A stretch of DNA of 64,000 nt from Escherichia phage T4. Shown piece by piece: positions 4,362 through 62,526 of this stretch (positions within the stretch are counted from its first letter, which is position 1; every line of letters starts with the position of its first letter). The notes beneath the pieces are model-generated. The model made no database searches and was not told the DNA's origin. It was given only the letters and a program-made list of their open reading frames with translations. Location: the sequence record MZ375356.1; one strand, 5' to 3'. Made by a program: the position numbers and the translations under genes.

Positions 4362-4640
4362 TCAAAATGTAATTTCTAACCAATCACCATCACGCTGATC
4401 ACTATTGACTTTAAAGCTGAATCCTTCTTTTCTCAGCCAATCACCAATTTCTTCTGTAATCAATTTATCACGAGCAATACAATAATAATTAAAATGTGTT
4501 TTACCTTGTTCAGCTGCTTTATTAGCAAGTTCTGAAAAATCTTTAATAAAACACTCTAGCTTAAACTGTTTACTTTTTAATGCTTTTTCGCGTAATTGAT
4601 TAGCAAAAGATTCATTTTCATAAAGATCATACTGTTCCAT
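4362..4640 (-). CDS. 24.2: hypothetical protein 24.2
   Basis: 92-aa ORF, position between rnlB and hoc. Confidence 0.6.
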   Translation of the reverse strand: MEQYDLYENESFANQLREKALKSKQFKLECFIKDFSELANKAAEQGKTHFNYYCIARDKLITEEIGDWLRKEGFSFKVNSDQRDGDWLEITF

Positions 4641-4842
4641 TTTTCACCTTTTTATTGATATGTCTTTTTCTATAGACAACTTTTTCTCGAGTTTCAAATT
4701 TATTCTTAGCAGTCATAGCTCGAGCCCATAATACAGCCACTTCTTTTGCCTGTAAGTTTAATTCACGAGCAATTTCAATGAATGACTTTCCAGACTCATG
4801 AAGAGTAAACACCACAACCTCAGTTCTCATAATCAATCTCAT
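4627..4842 (-). CDS. 24.3: hypothetical protein 24.3
   Basis: 71-aa ORF, position. Confidence 0.6.
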   Translation of the reverse strand: MRLIMRTEVVVFTLHESGKSFIEIARELNLQAKEVAVLWARAMTAKNKFETREKVVYRKRHINKKVKNGTV

Positions 4843-4894: not shown

Positions 4895-4927
4895 CTTTCA
4901 AAATGAAGAAAGGGGCCGAAGCCCCTT
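4895..4927 (-). terminator. hairpin terminator downstream of hoc remnant
   Basis: GGGGC-TTCG-GCCCC on minus strand followed by T-rich run. Confidence 0.6.
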
Positions 4928-5481
4928 ATGATAATGATACTTCATTAGAAGTAACGCTTAGTGCATCATAATCTGTCGCGGTTACTTGGGCTACGCATTT
5001 AATTCTTTTTACTCCACTTGTAGTTGGAGTATAGCTAAATGTAGAGTTAGTTTCTCCACCAACTTGTGAATCATCTACATACCACTGATACGTAGCAGAT
5101 GCTCCATCAGGTTGAGAAGCTAAGGCAGCAGTAAATTGAACTGGGGTTCCAATCACTCCAGCCGCAGGACTAGCAGGAGTTACGGCTAAGGTAGTCGTCT
5201 GTGTCTTATTTTTAACTGTGATAGTTGTTGTCGCTTCAGCCGTTTCCGGGCCTCCTTCAGAAAGTGTATTTGTTGCAACTACTTTAATAGTCTTTTGACC
5301 GGCAGGTCCTTTTAGCATAACTAAAAGTTGCTTCAGCTCCATCTTGTGGAACATTATCTACGCTCCAAGCATATGTAATAGTTCCGCCTCCAGTTTGACC
5401 ACTGGGTGTAGCAGTAAACTGCTTAGTTTCATCAATAACCCCTGTAGGTGTTTTAGGAGTTATATCAACTGTAAAAGTCAT
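4926..5481 (-). pseudogene. hoc: Hoc outer capsid protein, frameshifted after ~55 codons and lacking C-terminal half
   Basis: ORF 5284..5481 begins MTFTVDITPKTPTGVIDETKQFTATPSGQ then changes frame; ORF 4926..5354 continues with Ig-like domain sequence and stops 83 nt before 24.3; total ~190 codons versus 376 aa remembered for T4 Hoc. Confidence 0.8.
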
Positions 5482-5490
5482 AAGTTATCC

Positions 5491-6171
5491 TTATTTTAAT
5501 GTTACGAAAGAAGAGTTGCGTGTTTCACGAATTAAAACTGATCCATCGCGATTAATGTAATAAATTAAGCTAAATAAAGTTTGGTGTGCTGACGCATGTT
5601 CAAAACTAGTTGGGTGAGATTTCCAATCAGGAGTTTCAGCAATCCATTGATAAATCCACCAAGGAACAGTACAGAATCCTGGATTTTTTCCAATCAGTTG
5701 AAGATTCGGACTAAAGTTTTCCGGAAGAGTAAATACAGACGGCTTTTCAGATTCAATAATCTCAGCTACAGCCTGTTCGAATTTTTCTTCAACAAAAGGA
5801 GTATCTTCAATCAAAACATCGGTATTTTCAGGAATTTTATCCGTTTCTACTACTTCAATTTTAATGTCAGATTTAATCGGAGAATCAATCAGAAGTGCTG
5901 CTTCTGGATTGACTTCTTCATCGTCATATTTTAATCCCTCTGCGGCATCAGCAGCATCAATTAAGTCTTTAATAGATAACCCATCAGTCTCTGGCATAGG
6001 TTCACTAGCGAGCTTCTGGAGGGCTTCTTCAATATCAACAACGATATTATCAAAAGATTTATTCTTTTTGACCTTTATACCAAACTGTTCAGCATATTCA
6101 GCTAATTTAGCTTTAGCTTCTTTGTTATCATCAAGAGCCTTCAGCTCTGCAATATAATCTTTATCTATCAT
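5491..6171 (-). CDS. inh: Inh, inhibitor of prohead protease
   Basis: 226-aa ORF adjacent to hoc as in T4. Confidence 0.7.
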   Translation of the reverse strand: MIDKDYIAELKALDDNKEAKAKLAEYAEQFGIKVKKNKSFDNIVVDIEEALQKLASEPMPETDGLSIKDLIDAADAAEGLKYDDEEVNPEAALLIDSPIKSDIKIEVVETDKIPENTDVLIEDTPFVEEKFEQAVAEIIESEKPSVFTLPENFSPNLQLIGKNPGFCTVPWWIYQWIAETPDWKSHPTSFEHASAHQTLFSLIYYINRDGSVLIRETRNSSFVTLK

Positions 6172-6219: not shown

Positions 6220-6748
6220 ATGTACCACTTTGTATATGAAACAACAAATCTAATAAATGGTAAAAAGTATATAGGAAAGCACTCTACTGATGACTTGAAT
6301 GATGGTTACCTTGGTTCCGGTAAGGCAATTCAGCAGGCTATAAAGAAATATGGTGAAAACAATTTCTCTAGAACAATACTAAAAGAGTTTAAAACTTCCG
6401 AAGAAGCGTACATGTATGAAGAAGAAATTATAACTCCTGAACTAATAAAAAGCAAAAATTATAATATGAAACCTGGTGGAATTGGTGGAATTGGTGGAAT
6501 TGTTATGACTACAGATGTTATAGCAAAGATGAAAGAATCTTCCGCTAAAAGATTTGAAAACTCACCGGGCACGGTATTAGGTAAAACTTGTTACTAATGG
6601 AACTAAAAATATTTTTATTAAACCTGGAGAACTTGTTCCAGAAGGATTTGTAAAAGGGATGGTTCATCCTAATAGAAAGTCCAGAAAAGGATGTAAAGTC
6701 AAACCGACTACCACAGGAACTTTTTGGGTCAATAATGGCGCAAAATAA
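6220..6748 (+). pseudogene. segE: GIY-YIG homing endonuclease SegE-like, at least two frameshifts
   Basis: ORF 6220..6597 has GIY-YIG motif (MYHFVYETTNLINGKKYIG); Seg-type C-terminal motif (IFIKPGELVPEGFVKGM) continues in the next frame to 6748; a second copy of that motif is in the third frame running into uvsW. Confidence 0.7.
6475..6501 (+). repeat. 9-bp tandem repeat (GGTGGAATT)x3 inside segE
   Basis: three perfect tandem copies encoding GGIGGIGGI. Confidence 0.9.
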
Positions 6749-6839
6749 ATTAATACAACCAGACGGTATTATTCCCGACGGATTTATTAAAGGTCGTCTC
6801 ATGAAAAGAGATTCTAAAGGCAAATTTAGTAAGGCAATT

Positions 6840-9505: not shown

Positions 9506-9549
9506 TTGTTATTGGTTGTTATTGGATGTTATTGGATGTTATTGGATGG
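9506..9549. repeat. tandem decamer repeat (TTGTTATTGG/ATGTTATTGG) x4 plus partial copy
   Basis: seen directly; lies in the uvsY upstream region between uvsY and gene 25. Confidence 0.9.
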
Positions 9550-13063: not shown

Positions 13064-14829
13064 AAAAGCCACAAGAAATGCAAACGATGCGTAGAAAAGT
13101 TATTTCAGATAATAAACCAACACAGGAAGCGGCTAAATCCGCTTCTAATACTTTATCTGGGCTTAATGACATATCTACGAAATTGGATGATGCTCAAGCT
13201 GCTTCTGAATTAATAGCTCAAACTGTCGAAGAAAAATCGAATGAAATAATTGGAGCAATTGACAATGTAGAAAGCGCAGTGAGTGATACTACTGCCGGTT
13301 CTGAGTTAATTGCTGAAACTGTCGAAATTGGCAACAATATTAATAAAGAAATCGGTGAATCGCTCGGAAGCAAATTAGATAAATTAACAAGTTTACTAGA
13401 GCAAAAAATCCAGACAGCTGGAATTCAACAGACTGGAACTAGTTTAGCTACGGTTGAAAGCGCTATTCCTGTTAAAGTCGTTGAGGATGATACTGCTGAA
13501 TCTGTGGGTCCTTTATTACCAGCTCCTGAAGCAGTTAATAATGATCCTGACGCTGATTTTTTCCCTACCCCTCAGCCAGTTGAGCCAAAGCAAGAATCAC
13601 CAGAAGAAAAACAGAAAAAAGAAGCATTTAACTTAAAATTATCTCAAGCTTTAGATAAATTAACGAAGACTGTTGATTTTGGATTTAAAAAATCCATTTC
13701 AATTACTGATAAAATATCAAGCATGCTATTTAAGTACACCGTCAGTGCTGCTATTGAAGCTGCTAAAATGACTGCAATGATATTGGCTGTTGTTGTTGGA
13801 ATAGACCTTTTGATGATTCACTTTAAATACTGGTCAGATAAATTTTCAAAAGCCTGGGATTTGTTTAGTACAGACTTTACCAAATTCTCTAGCGAAACCG
13901 GAACTTGGGGTCCTTTATTACAGAGCATCTTTGATTCTATTGATAAAATTAAACAACTTTGGGAAGCGGGAGATTGGGGTGGATTGACAGTAGCTATTGT
14001 TGAAGGGCTTGGAAAGGTTCTTTTTAATTTAGGTGAACTTATTCAATTAGGTATGGCTAAATTATCTGCAGCAATTCTTCGAGTCATTCCTGGTATGAAG
14101 GATACTGCTGATGAAGTAGAAGGAAGAGCATTAGAAAATTTCCAAAATTCTACTGGAGCATCTCTCAATAAAGAAGACCAAGAAAAAGTAGCAAATTATC
14201 AAGATAAACGAATGAATGGAGACCTTGGCCCAATAGCAGAAGGACTAGACAAAATCTCTAACTGGAAAACTCGTGCATCTAACTGGATTCGTGGTGTAGA
14301 TAATAAAGAAGCGCTGACTACCGACGAAGAGCGTGCGGCAGAAGAAGAAAAATTAAAGCAACTTTCACCGGAAGAAAGAAAAAATGCTTTAATGAAGGCT
14401 AATGAAGCTCGTGCTGCGATGATTCGTTTTGAAAAATATGCCGATTCAGCTGATATGAGTAAAGACTCAACGGTTAAATCAGTTGAAGCTGCCTATGAAG
14501 ACCTTAAAAAACGGATGGATGACCCGGATAATAATTCACCGGCAGTTAAAAAAGAACTTGCTGCTAGATTTTCTAAAATTGATGCTACTTATCAAGAGCT
14601 CAAGAAAAATCAGCCTAATGCCAAACCTGAAACTTCTGCTAAATCACCAGAAGCGAAACAAGTCCAGGTGATTGAAAAGAACAAAGCACAGCAAGCTCCT
14701 GTTCAACAAGCATCTCCTTCGATCAATAATACTAATAATGTTATTAAGAAAAATACTGTCGTTCATAATATGACACCTGTAACGAGCACGACTGCTCCTG
14801 GTGTATTTGATGCGACTGGAGTTAATTAA
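13060..14829 (+). CDS. 29: baseplate hub / tail length determinator gp29
   Basis: 589-aa ORF, ATGA overlap with gene 28 stop. Confidence 0.9.
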   Translation: MKKPQEMQTMRRKVISDNKPTQEAAKSASNTLSGLNDISTKLDDAQAASELIAQTVEEKSNEIIGAIDNVESAVSDTTAGSELIAETVEIGNNINKEIGESLGSKLDKLTSLLEQKIQTAGIQQTGTSLATVESAIPVKVVEDDTAESVGPLLPAPEAVNNDPDADFFPTPQPVEPKQESPEEKQKKEAFNLKLSQALDKLTKTVDFGFKKSISITDKISSMLFKYTVSAAIEAAKMTAMILAVVVGIDLLMIHFKYWSDKFSKAWDLFSTDFTKFSSETGTWGPLLQSIFDSIDKIKQLWEAGDWGGLTVAIVEGLGKVLFNLGELIQLGMAKLSAAILRVIPGMKDTADEVEGRALENFQNSTGASLNKEDQEKVANYQDKRMNGDLGPIAEGLDKISNWKTRASNWIRGVDNKEALTTDEERAAEEEKLKQLSPEERKNALMKANEARAAMIRFEKYADSADMSKDSTVKSVEAAYEDLKKRMDDPDNNSPAVKKELAARFSKIDATYQELKKNQPNAKPETSAKSPEAKQVQVIEKNKAQQAPVQQASPSINNTNNVIKKNTVVHNMTPVTSTTAPGVFDATGVN

Positions 14830-21996: not shown

Positions 21997-22061
21997 AGGA
22001 ACACGTAATATTTCACTCGCGTGATCGCAGTGGTGAGCGAGATCGTCAATAACAAATTACG

Positions 22062-22482
22062 TTATTTCTCTTTTGCTTTTTTGAACAACTCTTCTTTTGA
22101 AGAATCATGACTACACATCAGTACTTCTGAGAAAGCACCAGGAAAAAGAGCATTCAAATTAAATTGACGATTTAATAGAGCGTCAATAGAATCACCCAAT
22201 GCTGTAACAGCAACAAAATTATAATCTTCTTTTAATTTGTTAATTACACAGAGCATCTTTATATGGAGACAAGTAACGAATAAAATCCGAACGATTGTAT
22301 TTTTCAATTAACTTGACGCCAAGTTCTTCATCACAGTTAAAGAGTTTACCAGGAGAAATAAATTTCTCATCTTGGATCATTTTTAAAATATGTTCTAACG
22401 GAAGATTATATTTCTGAGCAAAATAAGGAAGGCCTGATTGCCAGCTTAAACATACTCCATCAATATCAGTTAATAGTAGGCT
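22062..22482 (-). pseudogene. HAD-superfamily phosphatase-like gene in pieces (positional 30.3)
   Basis: HAD motif I (LLLTDIDGV) lies immediately after the upstream stop; motif IV-like GDSIDA is in ORF 22062..22307 in another frame; the only ATG is in a third frame. Confidence 0.5.
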
Positions 22483-22944
22483 TCATAGAGAGTCTCTTAA
22501 TAGGTTTAACACATCAATAAATTCAGCTTCGGTTAGTATTGTATCATCTTTTGTTAGACCACTAGCAATGCTGTGCTTCAAAACTTTTCCTTTCGAGGCT
22601 TGTAATGCATCACGAAAGCCCTTGTTTTGAATCGCTGCTTCAAAATATGCATTTGTGTATAATTCTTTCCACGCCGGGGAGTATCTTGAAAACGGAACTC
22701 CAAGCCAAAAGAGGGTCCCACGGTCCTGAGCTCTAGCATAAGACCTTCCAGCTTGTTGGGCGGCAAGCCCGGATAACCCAAATATACGTTGTTGTTCAAC
22801 ATTTTTCACCTTACACCCTTGGAGGAATCCTTCAAGACCTCCAAATTGAATACCATCCATAACGAAAGGCCATTGGGCGAAATTACTTAATGCACATGAT
22901 GGCCACCTAAAATTGCTTCTAATCTCTAACTCAGACATTTTCAA
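22483..22944 (-). CDS. NADAR/YbiA-like domain protein (positional 30.3')
   Basis: 153-aa ORF; LSNFAQWPFVMDGIQF resembles the YbiA/NADAR signature FSNFAAWPIKVDGKTW. Confidence 0.6.
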   Translation of the reverse strand: MKMSELEIRSNFRWPSCALSNFAQWPFVMDGIQFGGLEGFLQGCKVKNVEQQRIFGLSGLAAQQAGRSYARAQDRGTLFWLGVPFSRYSPAWKELYTNAYFEAAIQNKGFRDALQASKGKVLKHSIASGLTKDDTILTEAEFIDVLNLLRDSL

Positions 22945-23137
22945 TGCTTATAATTTCAACATCAGCCCAATGACCATAGCAAGGAAGACGAAATTCAACT
23001 GGCCAGTTAGGGTCCTTTTCTAATATAATAGACTCAACTTGTGGTTCTTCGTGTTCATCAGTATACGGATTTTTATCTGTTACTTTATATGTGACCTTAA
23101 TGTACTGAATTCCAAAAATCTTATTAATTATATTCAT
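22931..23137 (-). CDS. small hypothetical protein (30.x cluster)
   Basis: 68-aa ORF. Confidence 0.4.
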   Translation of the reverse strand: MNIINKIFGIQYIKVTYKVTDKNPYTDEHEEPQVESIILEKDPNWPVEFRLPCYGHWADVEIISIENV

Positions 23138-23331
23138 ACTAATTCCTTTAATCCGTAGATAGGAGATAATTCATCACCCATACGAAGGTCTTCATTTCCA
23201 TCTACCCAGGAAACAATATAAGCCTCTTTTATTTGAATACCACTCCATTTAAATGGAGGTAGAACCTTAGAAATTAATCCAGGTATACCAACTCCCTTTA
23301 ATTCAACAGTTTGACCTAAAAAGAATTTCAT
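23134..23331 (-). CDS. small hypothetical protein (30.x cluster)
   Basis: 65-aa ORF. Confidence 0.4.
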   Translation of the reverse strand: MKFFLGQTVELKGVGIPGLISKVLPPFKWSGIQIKEAYIVSWVDGNEDLRMGDELSPIYGLKELV

Positions 23332-23617
23332 TAGAACCTCATCTGAAAACCGTGCGATTTAACATTACCGCCGCCAATATCAGAAATGTTAATTTCACGC
23401 GCAATTGAAGGGTCAATGTCAATTTCACGATTGAGTTTAGTGATAGCTAAAGTATCACGCCCATTTACAGTACGGAACTCTAAAGGACAAACCACATCAA
23501 CGTAGTTTTAATCGATTCGCTAGTAAGTTGCAAATGTGCAGGAAGGTCTTTAGGTGCCTTTGAGAAAACCACTTCACAGAAATTTTTGCGGGTATCAAAA
23601 TAAGTAGTCATAAACAT
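23332..23617 (-). pseudogene. small 30.x gene split by frameshift
   Basis: ATG with RBS at 23617 gives MFMTTYFDTRKNFCEVVFSK... which stops after ~45 codons; plausible continuation ...VVCPLEFRTVNGRDTLAITKLNREIDIDPS... is in the next frame. Confidence 0.4.
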
Positions 23618-23707
23618 AATATTTTCCTCAGTAAGGGGCTGAAGCCCCTCATTTTATTTTAAATATCAAATTCATTAAGAACTACATCAAAGATTGCTTC
23701 AAGATGC

Positions 23708-24022
23708 TCAGGTAGCTCTGTTACTCAGAATATGACGAATCCAAGTTTTAACTAAGAGTTTACGATTAGCACCATTCCAGCAAGGATGAGTCCCTAAATC
23801 GCGTTGGCGGAAATCATCATCCAGAGCGATTTTGAAGTTGGAACCTTTCATCGTGATTGAAACCGTGATACCGTTTTCAAATCGCATATAAACGTAGTTA
23901 GGAGTCATATACTGTTCAATTTCGCATACTGATCCATTTTGATGTTTCCAGAGGCAAATAGTATCAATAGAACCTGCAATACCATTAGAAACATATTTAC
24001 GTTCAAAGTTAATGTAGTTCAT
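23708..24022 (-). CDS. hypothetical protein (30.x cluster)
   Basis: 104-aa ORF. Confidence 0.4.
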   Translation of the reverse strand: MNYINFERKYVSNGIAGSIDTICLWKHQNGSVCEIEQYMTPNYVYMRFENGITVSITMKGSNFKIALDDDFRQRDLGTHPCWNGANRKLLVKTWIRHILSNRAT

Positions 24023-24204
24023 TTTTATTCTCCGAGATGTTTAATTGCGGTACAGGTATAATATCATATCCTGTACCAAAGTAAACAATTATTTTACTAC
24101 TTTCCAATGCTGCATGTCAAGTTTACCAACTTTTTTCATCTTCTCAATTAAGCGTTCTGCACGTTGGCGAGCTAACATAATGCCATTCGCCTAATTCATT
24201 TTGT

Positions 24205-24417
24205 TCAATTTTTCCAACGAACTGTATTCAATTCATAAATCCAACCAGTAAAGAAATTATGAACTTGAATTGTAAAGGTGAAATCTGTTCCCATACCTTC
24301 TGTTGTTTCTACTTCAATAATATCACCTTCAACTGCCATTAAGAACCACATAGTTTCATCATATTTACCATTGAAGCATTTAGTTTTAACTGCAGCGTTC
24401 AGATTAATCGTTTTCAT
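24205..24417 (-). CDS. hypothetical protein (30.x cluster)
   Basis: 70-aa ORF preceded by early-type promoter. Confidence 0.45.
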   Translation of the reverse strand: MKTINLNAAVKTKCFNGKYDETMWFLMAVEGDIIEVETTEGMGTDFTFTIQVHNFFTGWIYELNTVRWKN

Positions 24418-27708: not shown

Positions 27709-27766
27709 ATTATTAGCGATTTTGGCTACACTACTTCTACGATTTTAGAGTAAGTCGGAAACATAT

Positions 27767-27957
27767 TTACCTCACATAATTTTCTTCAAGCCAATCAATA
27801 ACATCCAACGCATTATCAAAAGTTGAACCATCTACTCTGTCTTCTGTTTCATAATCAAGAACATCTGCCTACTCTTCCGTCAACAATAGGCCATAGACAA
27901 AATAGATATTTCTTTTCTTTTTCAATTTTATCACAAAGACGATAAATCTTTTCTAGG

Positions 27958-37695: not shown

Positions 37696-38703
37696 CATTA
37701 TGTTCAGATAAGGTCGTTAATCTTACCCCGGAATTATATCCAGCTGCATGTCACCATGCAGAGCAGACTATATCTCCAACTTGTTAAAGCAAGTTGTCTA
37801 TCGTTTCGAGTCACTTGACCCTACTCCCCAAAGGGATAGTCGTTAGGCATTTATGTAGAACCAATTCCATTTATCAGATTTTACACGATAAGTAACTAAT
37901 CCAGACGAAATTTTAAAATGTCTAGCTGCATCTGCTGCACAATCAAAAATAACCCCATCACATGAAATCTTTTTAATATTACTAGGCTTTTTACCTTTCA
38001 TCTTTTCTGATATTTTAGATTTAGTTATGTCTGAATGCTTATGATTAAAGAATGAATTATTTTCACCTGAACGATTTCTGCATTTACTACAAGTATAAGC
38101 AGAAGTTTGTATGCGAACACCGCACTTACAAAACTTATGGGTTTCTGGATTCCAACGCCCGTTTTTACTTCCGGGTTTACTGTAAAGAGCTTTCCGACCA
38201 TCAGGTCCAAGTTTAAGCATCTTAGCTTTAACAGTTTCAGAACGTTTCTTAATAATTTCTTCTTTTAATGGATGCGTAGAACATGTATCACCAAACGTTG
38301 CATCAATATTGTATCCATTAATTTTAGAAAGCTCTTTAATCCAAAAATTTTCTCGTTCAATAATCAAATCTTTCTCATATGGAATTTCTTCCAAAATAGA
38401 ACATAAACACATTACCATGTTTGTTAAAAGACCTCTGAAGTTTTATAGAAGAATGGCATCCTTTTTCTAAATCTTTAAAATGCCTCTTCCATCTCTTTTC
38501 AAAATCTTTAGCACTTCCTACATATACTTTATTGTTTAAAGTATTTTTAATCTGATAAATTCCGCTTTTCATAAATACCTCTTTAAATATAGAAGTATTT
38601 ATTAAAGGGCAGTCCTACAATTTAGCACGGGATTGTCTACTAGAGAGGTTCCCCGTTTAGATAGATTACAAGTATAAGTCACCTTATACTCAGGCCTCAA
38701 TTA
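37696..38703 (-). mobile_element. td group I intron (1008 nt) carrying disrupted I-TevI
   Basis: 5' boundary CTTGGGT/TAATTGAGGCCTGAG and 3' boundary CTGAACATAATG/CTACCG match the remembered T4 td intron; 8 nt shorter than the 1016 nt remembered for T4. Confidence 0.9.
37843..38572 (-). pseudogene. I-TevI: I-TevI GIY-YIG homing endonuclease, frameshifted
   Basis: ORF 38375..38572 MKSGIYQIKNTLNNKVYVGS...KHGNVF then frame change; ORF 37843..38418 resumes ...CSILEEIPYEKDLIIERENFWIKEL to end ...KWNWFYINA; GNVF-EC junction lacks 2 nt. Confidence 0.9.
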
Positions 38704-39873
<1,170 letters not shown>

Positions 39874-39895
39874 TCAATGACACATAATATTTTCC

Positions 39896-40138
39896 TCAAA
39901 CAGACTTTTTCACAATTTTCCAATCAGCTTTAAACTGCTCGACGTCAGAATGGTAAATCCAAAATCCTGCGCTTTCTCCGTCTTCATAAAGAGGACATCC
40001 ATCGCATTCATCTTCCCATCCCATATCACGTAAAAGATGTTCAGCTTTTTCAACAAGTTCAGAATCTTTACCGATGATATTAAAATACCATTTACCTCTA
40101 ACTTCTGAATCTTTGATGCTCTGGCGTTGTAATCTCAT
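39896..40138 (-). CDS. frd.1: hypothetical protein frd.1
   Basis: 80-aa ORF, position. Confidence 0.5.
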   Translation of the reverse strand: MRLQRQSIKDSEVRGKWYFNIIGKDSELVEKAEHLLRDMGWEDECDGCPLYEDGESAGFWIYHSDVEQFKADWKIVKKSV

Positions 40139-40239
40139 TTTATTCTCCTTAGCAAGCTTTAATCAAAAGATATAAACAGACCAACATAACTGCTGCCATA
40201 ATATAAGGTGCGAACATTTTCTTTTCTCCATTAGTTTTG

Positions 40240-40277
40240 ATAGGGTAATAGTATCACACTACTACCCTGATGTAAAC
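40240..40277 (-). promoter_or_regulatory. early-type promoter (GTTTAC / TACTAT)
   Basis: minus strand GTTTAC, 18-nt spacer, TACTAT upstream of frd.1. Confidence 0.4.
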
Positions 40278-40313
40278 TACTTTTTGAAAGTTTTTCGCAA
40301 AAGTTCAATGATT

Positions 40314-40656
40314 TCATCTACATTGTTCGTCAACAATGCAGTGAATTTTTGTTACGCCAGAAACCTTGTCTTTGACTTCATCTTCTTCAGAAGTCGGTTC
40401 TTTATATTCGCGGAAACAATAAAACTCTTCACTAAGTTCAAAATAATCATCACCCATACCATCATCATTATAGATTTCACCATTAGCACAAATGATTTCG
40501 GTTACATAATCAAAGCCATCTAAACTTGATATTGATAACTTCAAACCAACCGCCATTTTCTTGAATGATGCCGACCATACTAGCATTTGATGAACTAATA
40601 TCAATGAAAGATTTAATACGATGTGGATTTAACTCGTATTTTTTGCCGATTTCCAT
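40314..40656 (-). pseudogene. frd.2: frd.2 with frameshift
   Basis: ATG with RBS at 40656 gives MEIGKKYELNPHRIKSFIDISSSNASMVGIIQENGGWFEVINIKF then stop; ...SLDGFDYVTEIICANGEI... continues in the frame of listed ORF 40314..40604. Confidence 0.5.
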
Positions 40657-40701
40657 TTTGATTTTCCTCATTTTAATAGGGGCTTGATAGCCCCTTGATA
40701 A

Positions 40702-40927
40702 TTATTGTTCAATCAGTCCCATGTAAAATTCTGCGTCTTCAGAATCCATGCCATCACAATATTCATTAGCCATAAAGCGGGTGAGGTCTTCAAGAGGACC
40801 TTCAATAACGATTTGAATACTCCAAAACTTAGAATCTTGCACGCTTGTGATACTAAGTTCAGGATAACGATTACGAATAATCTCTTCAATATTCAAAATC
40901 AACGATGTCAATATCAACTTTAGCCAT
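40702..40927 (-). pseudogene. frd.3: frd.3 with frameshift near codon 13
   Basis: ATG with RBS AAAGAGGAAA at 40927 gives [13 protein letters not shown] then stop; downstream frame (listed ORF 40702..40917, non-ATG start) carries the rest. Confidence 0.5.
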
Positions 40928-40944
40928 ATTATTTTCCTCTTTAA

Positions 40945-41037
40945 TTAGCAGTATTGCCGATAGTTGTATAGTACCATAAAGCTTTATGCTTGTAAACCGT
41001 TTTGTCCATAAAGCTTTATGCTTGTAAACCGTTTTGT
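40945..41037 (-). promoter_or_regulatory. early-type promoter region with perfect 32-bp tandem duplication (40974..41005 and 41006..41037)
   Basis: each copy carries GTTTAC -35 and a GCTTTA MotA-box-like motif; only the proximal copy is followed by GGTACTATACAACTATC; element family also at 57760 and 60818. Confidence 0.5.
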
Positions 41038-42062: not shown

Positions 42063-42690
42063 TCATAGCTGGCATAATTCGCAATACTCTGGGTCTTCGA
42101 GAGGTATCCAACCTGAGTTGAAATACTTTACCATCGATTTAGCAGTTGTATCAGTTATATTTATATTACCTTTAACTCTTCGCCATCCAGGAGTTTTACC
42201 GTACAGATTAGAGGATAATAACACATAATTCTCGTAAGCAATATGAGATAATTTCCAAGACTCTATATTAGCTCGTGATGTTTTCCAAGGTCTAAAATCG
42301 TCACGGTTCATATAAAGCCAATCTCATATGCTCTCTAACTTCCGGGTCTTTGGCTGGATGAGTTTCACCACTCACACCAAATCCACCACCAGCATATACC
42401 AGATTAAAATAGTCTGGATTATCTCTGGCATTTACTTCAAGTTGGTATTTTCGTTCTGCTTCAATAACATCCAAGTCATCATCAATTTGAATTATTTTAA
42501 CGCTCGGTTTTTGAAGCATTAGCGCATTCAAAAATCTTTTTTGTTTACATGAGCTCCAGTATTCCTTTCCGGAAGAGTCATATATTATTCCGTTCTCAAA
42601 TGAGCAATTTAATTTACTACCGATATAGTAGTATGGCGGAGTCTTATTTTTGACACGGTCTTCAAATGTAAACCAATATACTATATTCAT
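42063..42690 (-). pseudogene. segG: GIY-YIG homing endonuclease SegG-like (gene 32.1), frameshifted
   Basis: ORF 42301..42690 has GIY-YIG core (YYYIGSK, NLVYAGGG); ORF 42063..42311 overlaps in another frame; span 628 nt. Confidence 0.6.
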
Positions 42691-47900: not shown

Positions 47901-48822
47901 CCGTTCGACAGTGTTTGAAGTTGGCGATGACACATCTCATCACTTTTATTCTCAACGTAATAAAGACGGTATAGCGTTTAACATTAATGGTACTGTAATG
48001 CCAATAAACATTAATGCTTCCGGTTTGATGAATGTGAATGGCACTGCAACATTCGGTCGTTCAGTTACAGCCAATGGTGAATTCATCAGCAAGTCTGCAA
48101 ATGCTTTTAGAGCAATAAACGGTGATTACGGATTCTTTATTCGTAATGATGCCTCTAATACCTATTTTTTGCTCACTGCAGCCGGTGATCAGACTGGTGG
48201 TTTTAATGGATTACGCCCATTATTAATTAATAATCAATCCGGTCAGATTACAATTGGTGAAGGCTTAATCATTGCCAAAGGTGTTACTATAAATTCAGGC
48301 GGTTTAACTGTTAACTCGAGAATTCGTTCTCAGGGTACTAAAACATCTGATTTATATACCCGTGCGCCAACATCTGATACTGTAGGATTCTGGTCAATCG
48401 ATATTAATGATTCAGCCACTTATAACCAGTTCCCGGGTTATTTTAAAATGGTTGAAAAAACTAATGAAGTGACTGGGCTTCTATACTTAGAACGTGGCGA
48501 AGAAGTTAAATCTCCTGGTACACTGACTCAGTTTGGTAACACACTTGATTCGCTTTACCAAGATTGGATTACTTATCCAACGACGCCAGAAGCGCGTACC
48601 ACTCGCTGGACACGTACATGGCAGAAAACCAAAAACTCTTGGTCAAGTTTTGTTCAGGTATTTGACGGAGGTAACCCTCCTCAACCATCTGATATCGGTG
48701 CTTTACCATCTGATAATGCTACAATGGGGAATCTTACTATTCGTGATTTCTTGCGAATTGGTAATGTTCGCATTGTTCCTGACCCAGTGAATAAAACGGT
48801 TAAATTTGAATGGGTTGAATAA
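44956..48822 (+). CDS. 34: long tail fibre proximal subunit gp34
   Basis: 1288-aa ORF with internal tandem ~30-aa repeats (RRGIARIATTAQVNQ, RRGVAEIATQQETNAG, RGTLRVATQVEAAAG). Confidence 0.95.
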   Translation: MAEIKRKFRAEDGLDAGGDKIINVALADRTVGTDGVNVDYLIQENTVQQYDPTRGYLKDFVIIYDNRFWAAINDIPKPAGAFNSGRWRALRTDANWITVSSGSYQLKSGEAISVNTAAGNDITFTLPSSPIDGDTIVLQDIGGKPGVNQVLIVAPVQSIVNFRGEQVRSVLMTHPKSQLVLIFSNRLWQMYVADYSREAIVVTPANTYQAQSNDFIVRRFTSAAPINVKLPRFANHGDIINFVDLDKLNPLYHTIVTTYDETTSVQEVGTHSIEGRTSIDGFLMFDDNEKLWRLFDGDSKARLRIITTNSNIRPNEEVMVFGANNGTTQTIELKLPTNISVGDTVKISMNYMRKGQTVKIKAADEDKIASSVQLLQFPKRSEYPPEAEWVTVQELVFNGETNYVPVLELAYIEDSDGKYWVVQQNVPTVERVDSLNDSTRARLGVIALATQAQANVDLENSPQKELAITPETLANRTATETRRGIARIATTAQVNQNTTFSFADDIIITPKKLNERTATETRRGVAEIATQQETNAGTDDTTIITPKKLQARQGSESLSGIVTFVSTAGATPASSRELNGTNVYNKNTDNLVVSPKALDQYKATPTQQGAVILAVESEVIAGQSQQGWANAVVTPETLHKKTSTDGRIGLIEIATQSEVNTGTDYTRAVTPKTLNDRRATESLSGIAEIATQVEFDAGVDDTRISTPLKIKTRFNSTDRTSVVALSGLVESGTLWDHYTLNILEANETQRGTLRVATQVEAAAGTLDNVLITPKKLLGTKSTEAQEGVIKVATQSETVTGTSANTAVSPKNLKWIAQSEPTWAATTAIRGFVKTSSGSITFVGNDTVGSTQDLELYEKNSYAVSPYELNRVLANYLPLKAKAADTNLLDGLDSSQFIRRDIAQTVNGSLTLTQQTNLSAPLVSSSTGEFGGSLAANRTFTIRNTGAPTSIVFEKGPASGANPAQSMSIRVWGNQFGGGSDTTRSTVFEVGDDTSHHFYSQRNKDGIAFNINGTVMPININASGLMNVNGTATFGRSVTANGEFISKSANAFRAINGDYGFFIRNDASNTYFLLTAAGDQTGGFNGLRPLLINNQSGQITIGEGLIIAKGVTINSGGLTVNSRIRSQGTKTSDLYTRAPTSDTVGFWSIDINDSATYNQFPGYFKMVEKTNEVTGLLYLERGEEVKSPGTLTQFGNTLDSLYQDWITYPTTPEARTTRWTRTWQKTKNSWSSFVQVFDGGNPPQPSDIGALPSDNATMGNLTIRDFLRIGNVRIVPDPVNKTVKFEWVE

Positions 48823-55460: not shown

Positions 55461-55735
55461 TCGAAATAATCTTCAATTTCATAATCATGGACATAAATCA
55501 TTATAGTTTTTAATACATCATCAATATTTTTTCCTGGAGCTGGAATTACGTAAAAATACCCTGCTTTTGAGAGGTCTTTATAAGTTCCAATCAAGAAATC
55601 ATTATTCTCAAGATGTAACTCTTCAACTAATTCATTGACAATTGAATGGTATAGGTTTGGCAGAAACTTATATAGCTTTTCTAGAATATCAATTTTGAAT
55701 GTATATTGAACCACGGACTGAGAATCAATAATCAT
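55457..55735 (-). CDS. arn: Arn anti-restriction (McrBC inhibitor)
   Basis: 92-aa acidic ORF, position between asiA and motA. Confidence 0.8.
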   Translation of the reverse strand: MIIDSQSVVQYTFKIDILEKLYKFLPNLYHSIVNELVEELHLENNDFLIGTYKDLSKAGYFYVIPAPGKNIDDVLKTIMIYVHDYEIEDYFE

Positions 55736-55844
55736 AGACCTTCCCCTTATGTTTCTGTTTGCGATTAGATTCTTTAAACGCTTTCTTCTTATCCTTATGA
55801 ACAGAAGCTTTATTAAAATTATGCTTTGCGACTAAATTGTTCAT
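55725..55844 (-). CDS. arn.1: small basic protein arn.1 (39 aa)
   Basis: ORF MNNLVAKHNFNKASVHKDKKK..., 3' end overlaps arn start. Confidence 0.35.
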   Translation of the reverse strand: MNNLVAKHNFNKASVHKDKKKAFKESNRKQKHKGKVYDY

Positions 55845-56015
55845 AGTGCTGAATTACCTCTCTTAAACATTTGCATGTGAATGAAAACTTTTAGCTACAC
55901 CACATTCAAATATGTTCTCTTAAATCGCGTGTATCGATATCCCATCTCAACAATAAAATGCCGTATTAGATTTTTATCTTTATCGTTTAGAGAATTAAAA
56001 TAATCAGATTTTGAA

Positions 56016-59341: not shown

Positions 59342-59484
59342 AAATTTACCATACTAGTGAATGTAGTGCCAATAACATCAGAAATGAAAAGCACGACTTG
59401 AATTAATCCGAACATTACTCCGTAATATAGTGCTACCAATAAAGCAGCAAGGGCTAATGAATAGCCCAAGATTTTCTTAATCAT
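59332..59484 (-). CDS. small membrane protein (50 aa; positional 52.1)
   Basis: ORF MIKKILGYSLALAALLVALYYGVMFGLIQVVLF..., hydrophobic. Confidence 0.4.
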   Translation of the reverse strand: MIKKILGYSLALAALLVALYYGVMFGLIQVVLFISDVIGTTFTSMVNLCN

Positions 59485-59630
59485 TAGATAACAACACAAA
59501 TGTTAAATATGCACACATACCCTGGGCTAAAGCTTGTGAAAACACACTGCTAGCATCGATACAGATAGTTAAAACACATGCTACTATCCAACAAATAAAT
59601 GAAATAACTCCTAATAATTTTGCAATTCAT
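59477..59630 (-). pseudogene. ac: ac (acriflavine sensitivity membrane protein), frameshift immediately after start codon
   Basis: ATG at 59630; hydrophobic body IAKLLGVISFICWIVACVLTICIDASSVFSQALAQGMCAYLTFVLLSND is one frame off; span 154 nt = 156-2; intact product would be 51 aa. Confidence 0.6.
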
Positions 59631-60566: not shown

Positions 60567-60694
60567 TTTACACCATTCCAAATTGTTTCAACCACGGATT
60601 TTAAACCATTTTGATGAATATCCATTCCTACTACCGCTGAAACCTGTGCAACCCACCACGCACAAGCAATAAGTACAGAATTCAAAATTTTCAT
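60563..60694 (-). CDS. small hydrophobic peptide (43 aa; ndd.x cluster)
   Basis: ORF MKILNSVLIACAWWVAQVSAVVGMD... Confidence 0.3.
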   Translation of the reverse strand: MKILNSVLIACAWWVAQVSAVVGMDIHQNGLKSVVETIWNGVK

Positions 60695-61744: not shown

Positions 61745-62526
61745 TTATTTAAATTGTTCAGTAACGTCTTCAACTACTTCATATTGGCAGGTACGCATTT
61801 TAGCATCGTTGTAATCAATCGGAATTGATACTACATCGCGAGGATGAACTTTAACTTTTACAACTCGGCTGGTTGAACTACCAAAGTGACGAATATAAGA
61901 TTTAGAACACACATGCAAACCACGAGAACAAGTTTGTGTATCATCGTCATTCACACGAGTACGTGGCATTTTAACTACTACCCGGACTGTTATCAAAGGT
62001 GTTTGAGTGACAGTCAAAGTAATTGCTGCGAACTACTTTCCAAGCATAGAAAACCATCTTCTGTAATTTCAATATCGTTTGCTACCAAGAAATCAAAGAG
62101 TCGAGATACCGCTTTTTGGCTTGGGTTTTCCAACAGATTTTCCAAGAACGGAAAATAAAATTCAAAGTTTTCGCCTTTTTCCATCGAGTCAAGAATACGA
62201 TCAACCAAACCAGACCGCAATTCAATATTTTGATAGAACAAGCTTCCACCTTCAATTCGAACATCGCCGGAAATATATTTTTCAACAGCACGACGAACAT
62301 TAATTTTTTGTGCCGCTTCTTCCAACTTATCCGCTACAAGCAGATTAAGAATTTCCTGGAAGTTTGAATGAGTATTAGGAGTTGCGTTATAAGTTACGCC
62401 ATCAACAGTAATTGAAATGAATTTTTTAGATGCATTCCAAATAATGTCAGATTTAGCAACTGGAGCAATAACTGCATCGCTATTAACTTTAACTGTAATA
62501 TCACCGCTAATAGTAACTTTAGGACG
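61745..62526 (-). pseudogene. rIIB: rIIB remnant: N-terminal ~51 codons absent, internal frameshift near 62017
   Basis: [30 protein letters not shown]... through ...[10 protein letters not shown] (in ORF 62014..62850) then frame change to ...CSRGLHVCSKSYIRHFGSS...EQFK (ORF 61745..62017); remembered N-terminus MYNIKCLTKNEQAEIV not present. Confidence 0.6.

Follow-up and report, generated by a model that had tools for sequence, protein, structure and literature searches.

The window analyzed here, a single stretch of 64 kb, is phage T4 DNA in standard T4 orientation, and a 1-kb query around hoc matches T4 records at 99.5-99.8%. The gene order on the minus strand, namely inh, hoc, terminator, 24.3, 24.2 and rnlB, is that of T4, and the context of hoc is intact, with inh and 24.3 flanking it on the same strand and the native ribosome-binding site and terminator in place (Table 1). 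The gene itself is a remnant. The single-piece match to the 1-kb query is OL964745.1, whereas wild-type T4 records align with it in two pieces. Downstream of the remnant, the terminator scan gives the hairpin as AAGGGGCTTCGGCCCCTT plus the T-run (4927-4900), with an RNA fold of -14.3 kcal/mol (z = -2.6), and the annotation of X14869 has a terminator at the same place downstream of hoc. An earlier note, made from this DNA alone, remarked that the stop codon of the stub adjoins this hairpin. The position is right, but it is not a derived trait, as the stop codon of wild-type hoc, too, lies just 6 nt ahead of this hairpin. Throughout, MT984581 serves as the wild-type baseline, given the roughly 50 positions per 50 kb at which AF158101.6 differs from modern T4. 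Many of the differences between AF158101.6 and MT984581.1 are adjacent-base swaps and single-base indels that look like legacy sequencing errors.

Table 1. Features of the hoc locus, and other sites with assigned coordinates, in the 64-kb window
Feature	Position	Strand	Observation and basis
hoc remnant	5481 to 4926	minus	two lesions relative to wild-type T4
inh, upstream neighbor	5491..6171	minus	intact, 226 aa; fixes synteny (ORF list; T4 record annotation)
hoc ribosome-binding region, AAGGA then ATG	5482..5495	minus	intact; alignment identical to wild-type T4
First hoc fragment, 65 aa	5284..5481	minus	native start, Hoc residues 1-55, 10 out-of-frame residues AKRTCRSKDY, stop (ORF translation)
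2-bp TA deletion, codon 56	between 5316 and 5315	minus	three-way alignment and lesion list
Second hoc fragment, original frame	4926..5315	minus	residues 57-184 (end of Ig domain 1 and Ig domain 2), Ser, TAA (tblastn)
579-bp deletion junction	4931..4932	minus	codons 185-376 and stop codon lost (alignment, reconstruction, endpoint analysis)
Native hoc intrinsic terminator	4900..4927	minus	GGGGCTTCGGCCCC stem-loop and T-run; wild-type sequence, directly after the stub stop codon
Gene 24.3, downstream neighbor	4627..4842	minus	intact; start 83 nt past the stub stop (ORF list, annotation)
rIIB-rIIA deletion junction	62511-62523, region to 64000		7-bp repeat
Substitutions gp34 P1177L, gp35 D232V, gp36 P189L, gp37 N937S, I951V, Y953H	48482, 49525, 50577, 53495, 53536, 53542		
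Substitutions gp48 T48I, RnlA Y298H, NrdB P50S	14980, 30726, 33723		

Two lesions separate the remnant from wild-type hoc. From its upstream bases through codon 55, the gene aligns with wild-type T4 without a difference. At this point, a deletion of TA (hoc nt 167-168, wild-type position about 111150) converts AGT TAT GTA CTA AAA to AGT TAT G CTA AAA in the alignment with AF158101 and MT984581, which explains the frame that the earlier note had found to run for 55 Hoc codons and then to fall two bases short. Endpoint analysis finds no tandem repeat at this site. The fragment that precedes the break has been deposited in exactly this form as UJD20389.1 in OL964745.1. The second fragment, which resumes the original frame, sits within a mechanical 142-aa ORF (4926-5354), and tblastn with wild-type Hoc aligns residues 56-185 to window positions 5318-4929 at 98%.

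The second lesion removes 579 bp, corresponding to MT984581 positions 110187-110765. As a result, the stub ends in ...SNEVSL-S-TAA, with TAA at 4928-4926, and its last six nucleotides (TCA TAA) come from immediately downstream of the wild-type stop codon. Both this ending and its distance from 24.3 (stop 4926, start 4842) are as first described. When only the TA and 579-bp deletions are applied to wild-type hoc, the window sequence is reconstructed exactly. The native codons retained number 184, close to the earlier estimate of about 190 against 376 aa, and since the alignment gives wild-type T4 hoc 376 codons, the shortness is not native to T4. The deletion has only 1 bp of exact microhomology, while its endpoints lie within an imperfect repeat whose copies are TATCATTA (codons 182-184) and TATCCATAA (codons 374-376 plus the stop). 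The location of the two ends in this repeat would explain their coincidence with codon boundaries. Among 50,697 phage records, the 579-bp junction occurs in a single one, OL964745.1.

These lesions have clear consequences for the domains of the protein. In wild-type Hoc, Pfam recognizes a PKD-type domain at residues 101-158 and an I-set domain at residues 193-283, and in the stub it recognizes the PKD domain only. The capsid-binding domain of Hoc comprises residues 281-376, with contacts to gp23* at residues 293-360 (Y293, H295, Y304, W306, W309, W310, Q354 and Y360) and a conserved ESRNG motif at residues 355-359 (PMC10385173). This domain, with all of its gp23* contacts, falls within the 579-bp deletion. 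What remains encodes Hoc residues 1-184 only, divided between two frames by the break after codon 55. The absence of the third Ig-like domain and of the capsid-binding domain, as originally proposed, is thereby confirmed, as the I-set domain is missing and residues 281-376 lie within the deletion. No second copy of the deleted segment was found in the window, where tblastn and blastn return weak Ig-repeat self-similarity only, and the complete genome of the closely matching clone OL964745.1 contains no full hoc copy, so that a full-length gene elsewhere, which the earlier note had allowed for, is found in neither.

The remnant is therefore well supported as a null allele of hoc without Ig domain 3 and the capsid-binding domain, and with the latter deleted, virions should lack Hoc. 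To judge from the sequence, either lesion alone should prevent attachment of Hoc to gp23* hexamers, and the predicted virions would be Hoc-free and otherwise viable. That T4 can do without Hoc has been recognized since the 1970s, and strains that lack it are in routine use. Null mutations in hoc leave viability unaffected (PMC3012670), and a spontaneous ochre mutation at hoc codon 166 in the phage HAP1 gives virions without Hoc by ELISA (PMC10580926).

The allele is already known. The same TA deletion, the same 579-bp junction and an identical 65-aa fragment are found in OL964745.1, described as 'Mutant Escherichia phage T4 clone T4_7t1', whose hoc is publicly annotated as two 'head outer capsid protein' fragments. 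A comparison of the window with T4_7t1 over 47 kb gives 28 lesions common to both, among them the two in hoc, and about 17 private to each. Within the stub, T4_7t1 has lost a further 2 bp (TT, near hoc nt 446), as is to be expected in a gene that was already dead. In the last 17 kb, on the other hand, the window clone carries more lesions than T4_7t1, including those in ac, 52.1, arn.1 and ndd.1, a 341-bp deletion in the ndd region, and frameshifts in rIIB. An independent assembly of run SRR22215991 yielded a contig that reproduces all three hoc lesions of T4_7t1.

A further clone of the same deposit, T4_3t3 (OL964735.1), has an intact hoc and is nearly wild type over 67 kb. In this span, besides a deletion in rII, it contains two 100-bp deletions, one 3-bp deletion and three substitutions. 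The 100-bp deletions are located near cd.3 (wild-type 133375-133475) and in arn.2 (162027-162127), and two of the substitutions are in the holin gene t. Common to the window, T4_7t1 and T4_3t3 is an 869-bp rII deletion (wild-type 168752 to 707, with a 7-bp repeat), and all three clones also carry two parental variants, a +1 at 161335 and T>G at 1968. In T4_3t3, the 869-bp deletion makes one in-frame rIIA-rIIB fusion ORF of 2,259 nt, and in the window 2-bp deletions at 61979 and 62052, together with others within rIIA, further shift the frame of this fusion. In its architecture, the fusion resembles the classical r1589 deletion, in which the N-terminal part of rIIA is joined in frame to rIIB without its start. 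The window ends at wild-type position 2199, in rIIA, as do OL964745.1 and OL964735.1, and probably represents the final 64 kb of a sibling record.

In combination, these observations place the window clone within the T4_3t3/T4_7t1 mutant series, where it is evidently a sibling of T4_7t1. They also show hoc to have been intact earlier or elsewhere in the clone series, within which the lesions would have arisen. A 3-bp deletion at wild-type 167044 is found in the window and in T4_3t3 and is absent from T4_7t1, a distribution that suggests a polymorphic or recombining population. A literature search found no publication or metadata on the T4_3t3/T4_7t1 series, and one literature match cites OL964735.1 as the T4 reference sequence in one laboratory's runs.

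Though hoc was singled out in the earlier note as one notable event, it is one among about 58 lesions that distinguish the 64-kb window from wild-type T4 (MT984581), part of a genome-wide decay in a laboratory mutant lineage that has broken some 25 dispensable genes here. Most of the lesions are small: 2-bp deletions number 35, 3-bp deletions 12 and 1-bp deletions 4, and a single base has been inserted at one site. The remainder are three tandem duplications, measuring 9, 20 and 32 bp, and three larger deletions, of which the one in ndd.3 to ndd.5 spans 341 bp, the one in hoc 579 bp and the one in rIIB-rIIA 869 bp. Examples lie at 1658, 6463-6836, 22049-24221, 27721-27867, 38304-40944 and 55889-55937.

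The distribution of these lesions among genes is far from even. All frame-breaking lesions located in genes (36 of 36) are in nonessential genes, and there are none in 24.8 kb of essential genes, for which P is about 6e-9 on the assumption that lesions are spread uniformly. The frame-broken genes are segD, hoc, segE, uvsY.-1, 30.2, 30.6, 30.7, 30.8, 31.2, cd.3, cd.4, I-TevIII, I-TevI, frd, frd.2, frd.3, segG, arn, arn.1, 52.1, ac, ndd.1, ndd.4 and rIIB. The essential genes 29 and 34 contain solely in-frame 3-bp deletions, one at 14530 (gene 29 codon 491) and one at 47970 (gene 34 codon 1005), and these positions therefore tolerate the loss of a residue. Dispensable DNA carries about one lesion per 240 bp, and some dead genes have taken multiple hits (segE has five lesions, 30.2 has four), which has the look of neutral accumulation after inactivation. 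Many genes usually called nonessential, a number of them large, are untouched, among them alt, nrdA, rnlA, rnlB, pseT, uvsW, cd, denB and ndd. In addition, only nine base substitutions are present (Table 1). All nine are nonsynonymous, and six of them are in the long-tail-fiber genes 34-37. Such a pattern suggests that a base change needs selection in order to persist, and the tail-fiber cluster, notably at the gp37 tip, is suggestive of selection on host recognition.

Several of the damaged loci belong to recognizable groups. Five of the six homing-endonuclease genes in the window are inactivated, comprising segD, segE, segG and the intron-encoded I-TevI and I-TevIII, with lesions at 1658-1970, 6463-6836, 33023, 38304-38405 and 42215-42316. 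The sixth, mobE, is intact in the window and split in T4_7t1. Among the tandem duplications, the 9-bp one is at 6474 in segE, the 20-bp one is at 9517 between uvsY and gene 25, in the oriF/uvsY promoter region, and the 32-bp one is at 41006 between frd.3 and gene 32. The latter two are in regulatory intergenic DNA beside important genes. At 60628-60637, the 10-bp direct repeat CTACTACCGC flanks the 341-bp deletion, which only the window clone has. Frameshifts also affect frd (dihydrofolate reductase) at 39540, ac (acridine resistance) at 59625, 52.1 at 59371, and arn (anti-restriction) and arn.1 at 55477-55937. The lesions in ac, 52.1 and arn.1 are private to the window clone, the frd lesion is common with T4_7t1, and the +1 in arn is found in all three clones.

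The hoc remnant is very probably the product of neutral decay, a dispensable gene inactivated twice over in a mutated laboratory T4 lineage, and not a Hoc-minus vector. The history that follows is read from sequence alone. The ancestor of the lineage would have been a strain in which a deletion fuses rIIA to rIIB in frame, and the lineage would then have come under a mutational regime of almost only small deletions (2 bp foremost, then 3 bp, then 1 bp), accompanied by a few tandem duplications of short segments and by some deletions of 100-900 bp at microhomologies. Selection for plaque formation would have purged frame-breaking lesions from the genes that are needed and let the dispensable ones accumulate them. 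Being dispensable in the laboratory, hoc would have decayed for that reason, alongside the seg, mob and intron endonuclease genes, 30.x, cd.x, frd.x, arn.x, ndd.x, ac and rII.

The sequence context of the lesions bears on how such a regime could operate. Direct repeats are found at two of the large deletions, a 10-bp repeat at the 341-bp deletion and a 7-bp repeat at the 869-bp deletion. One unit of a tandem repeat has been lost in 14 of 28 events of 2 bp, compared with 15.5% expected (p about 2e-5), and in 6 of 9 events of 3 bp, compared with 7.7% expected (p about 1e-5). A frameshift mutagen such as acridine, repeatedly applied to the rII-fusion strain, would fit the almost complete lack of neutral substitutions, the rII background and the pattern of accumulation, and the literature search found no record of acridine or a similar treatment. 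Selection by acridine in a sweep is unsupported, as the window clone alone has the ac frameshift, which neither T4_7t1 nor T4_3t3 carries. A polymerase mutator was also considered and is rejected for the region covered in T4_7t1, where gene 43 and the replication genes next to it match wild type. That clone has wild-type genes for DNA polymerase, helicase, primase, UvsX and the clamp loader, and genes 44, 45, 32, 59, rnh and 30 show no coding change wherever they are covered. An 18-kb region of T4_7t1 that includes soc has only twelve small deletions, located in mrh, mrh.1, segF, dam and intergenic DNA.

Instead of a known mutagen, a pure small-deletion process that is intrinsic to T4 or imposed by its host could have left the hoc stub as its footprint, an explanation that we consider unlikely. 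A candidate for it would be a nuclease making 2-nt staggered breaks, which would then be trimmed and resealed. Every lesion was checked for a nuclease-target motif (SpCas9 NGG, Cas12a TTTV, type I-E AAG, or a restriction site), and none is common to them. The TA deletion in hoc turns GTAC into GC, and the other lesion sites share no motif. The first lesion of hoc does have a parallel in phage T2, whose hoc (PV648363.1, 500-1756) is split into several ORFs by an 11-bp deletion at nt 166, a 1-bp deletion at nt 479 and a 2-bp deletion at nt 992. The 11-bp deletion begins at the very nucleotides where the window has its 2-bp deletion and leads into the same out-of-frame tail, CRSKDY-stop. The 62-aa fragment of T2 and the 65-aa fragment of the window fall into one 90% protein cluster. 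T2, however, is a natural isolate that has kept the coding sequence of the C-terminal domain out of frame, whereas in this laboratory T4 that sequence is gone. The coincidence at hoc nt 166 is possibly due to chance or to a local deletion hotspot. If an intrinsic or host-imposed process were indeed at work, its mechanism would be new, and the coincidence with T2 would point to a site-specific hotspot.

It is quite improbable that hoc was knocked out deliberately for capsid display or vector work. Display and vector strains of T4 are normally both hoc-minus and soc-minus. Display work uses Hoc(-) or Hoc(-)Soc(-) phage derived from hoc deletion mutants (PMC10385173, PMC3012670), and the 579-bp deletion, which starts at a codon boundary and ends exactly past the stop codon, could hint at design. 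Against this, half of hoc remains, and the separate 2-bp frameshift upstream would be needless in any design. Rather than one clean lesion in a defined background, hoc has two unrelated lesions and the window about 58, dozens of them similar small lesions in unrelated dispensable genes. The hoc junction contains no vector, tag or foreign sequence, T4_3t3 of the same series retains an intact hoc, and soc, which lies beyond the window, is 243 nt long in the complete T4_7t1 genome and identical to wild type there. The Hoc(-) and Hoc(-)Soc(-) T4 strains of the Rao and Black laboratories do share the predicted phenotype, with empty sites at hexamer centers that are able to bind recombinant Hoc in vitro. 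They differ in carrying a purpose-built deletion or amber mutation, usually with soc lost too, whereas here half of hoc is left and soc is intact in the sibling. The comparison with display and vector strains that had been drawn for this DNA thus holds for Hoc-free virions, a phenotype supported by inference from the literature, and fails for a vector-type origin, given the ~58 lesions and the intact soc of the sibling.

Another functional analog of the window allele is HAP1 (T4 delta-Hoc, Dabrowska laboratory), a spontaneous loss of hoc in laboratory T4, truncated in Ig domain 2 and viable (PMC10580926). HAP1 has a single C496T stop in an otherwise normal genome, while the window has a frameshift and a 579-bp deletion amid many other lesions. 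Identity with HAP1 is rejected, as codon 166 of the window hoc is still CAA (Gln; ...KCVAQVTATDY...), and the study of T4 virion evolution that describes HAP1 (PMC10580926) is rejected as the source of this DNA on account of its different hoc allele.

Errors of sequencing or assembly, for example from long reads on glucosyl-hydroxymethylcytosine DNA, could in principle produce the small deletions and leave hoc intact in reality or only truncated. Many of the 2- and 3-bp events do fall within short repeats (TA, AT or homopolymer) of the kind in which consensus errors often occur, but 6 of 28 events of 2 bp, that in hoc included, are without repeat context. Furthermore, errors would ignore whether a gene is essential, and 0 of 36 frame-breaking lesions fall in the essential genes. 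The shared and private lesions of the two clones form a tree-like pattern, and the independent assembly of SRR22215991 recovers the hoc lesions of T4_7t1. Lastly, T4_3t3 came from the same depositors and is nearly wild type over 67 kb, so their pipeline is not the source of the lesions. Error is accordingly a very improbable explanation.

It is equally hard to credit that a shortened Hoc is still made as a soluble protein with two Ig domains, either by +1 slippage on A-AAA-GG or by re-initiation at ATG 5354. The sequence GCT AAA AGG presents a slippery AAAA run before a rare AGG codon, where a +1 shift would restore the Hoc frame, the internal ATG at 5354 has GGAG 8 nt upstream, and the 142-aa ORF retains the PKD/Ig domain. 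Nevertheless, any such product would be without residues 185-376 and hence unable to bind the capsid. The second frameshift of T4_7t1 falls within the 142-aa ORF, which argues that there is no selection to keep it, and recoding in hoc is absent from wild-type T4. That the short hoc reflects natural variation among T4-like phages can be practically dismissed, since, even though shorter Hoc homologs with one or two Ig domains exist (PMC10385173) and hoc of T2 is naturally fragmented, the flanking DNA is otherwise identical to laboratory T4 and both hoc junctions are absent from the 50,697 phage records save T4_7t1, as well as from IMG/VR by exact scans.

With neutral decay in a mutated laboratory lineage as the preferred reading, very little is gained for hoc itself, given that Hoc-less T4 has long been known and the allele is already deposited. 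For annotation, the locus is best labeled as a hoc pseudogene in a laboratory mutant, and not as a natural short Hoc or a display vector. Of somewhat more interest is the spectrum dominated by 2-bp deletions in this lineage. Whatever its cause, the lineage amounts to a genome-wide map of T4 genes that can be lost, and the pattern of lesions in the window provides an informal map of dispensability for the late and tail-fiber half of the T4 genome under the growth conditions used.
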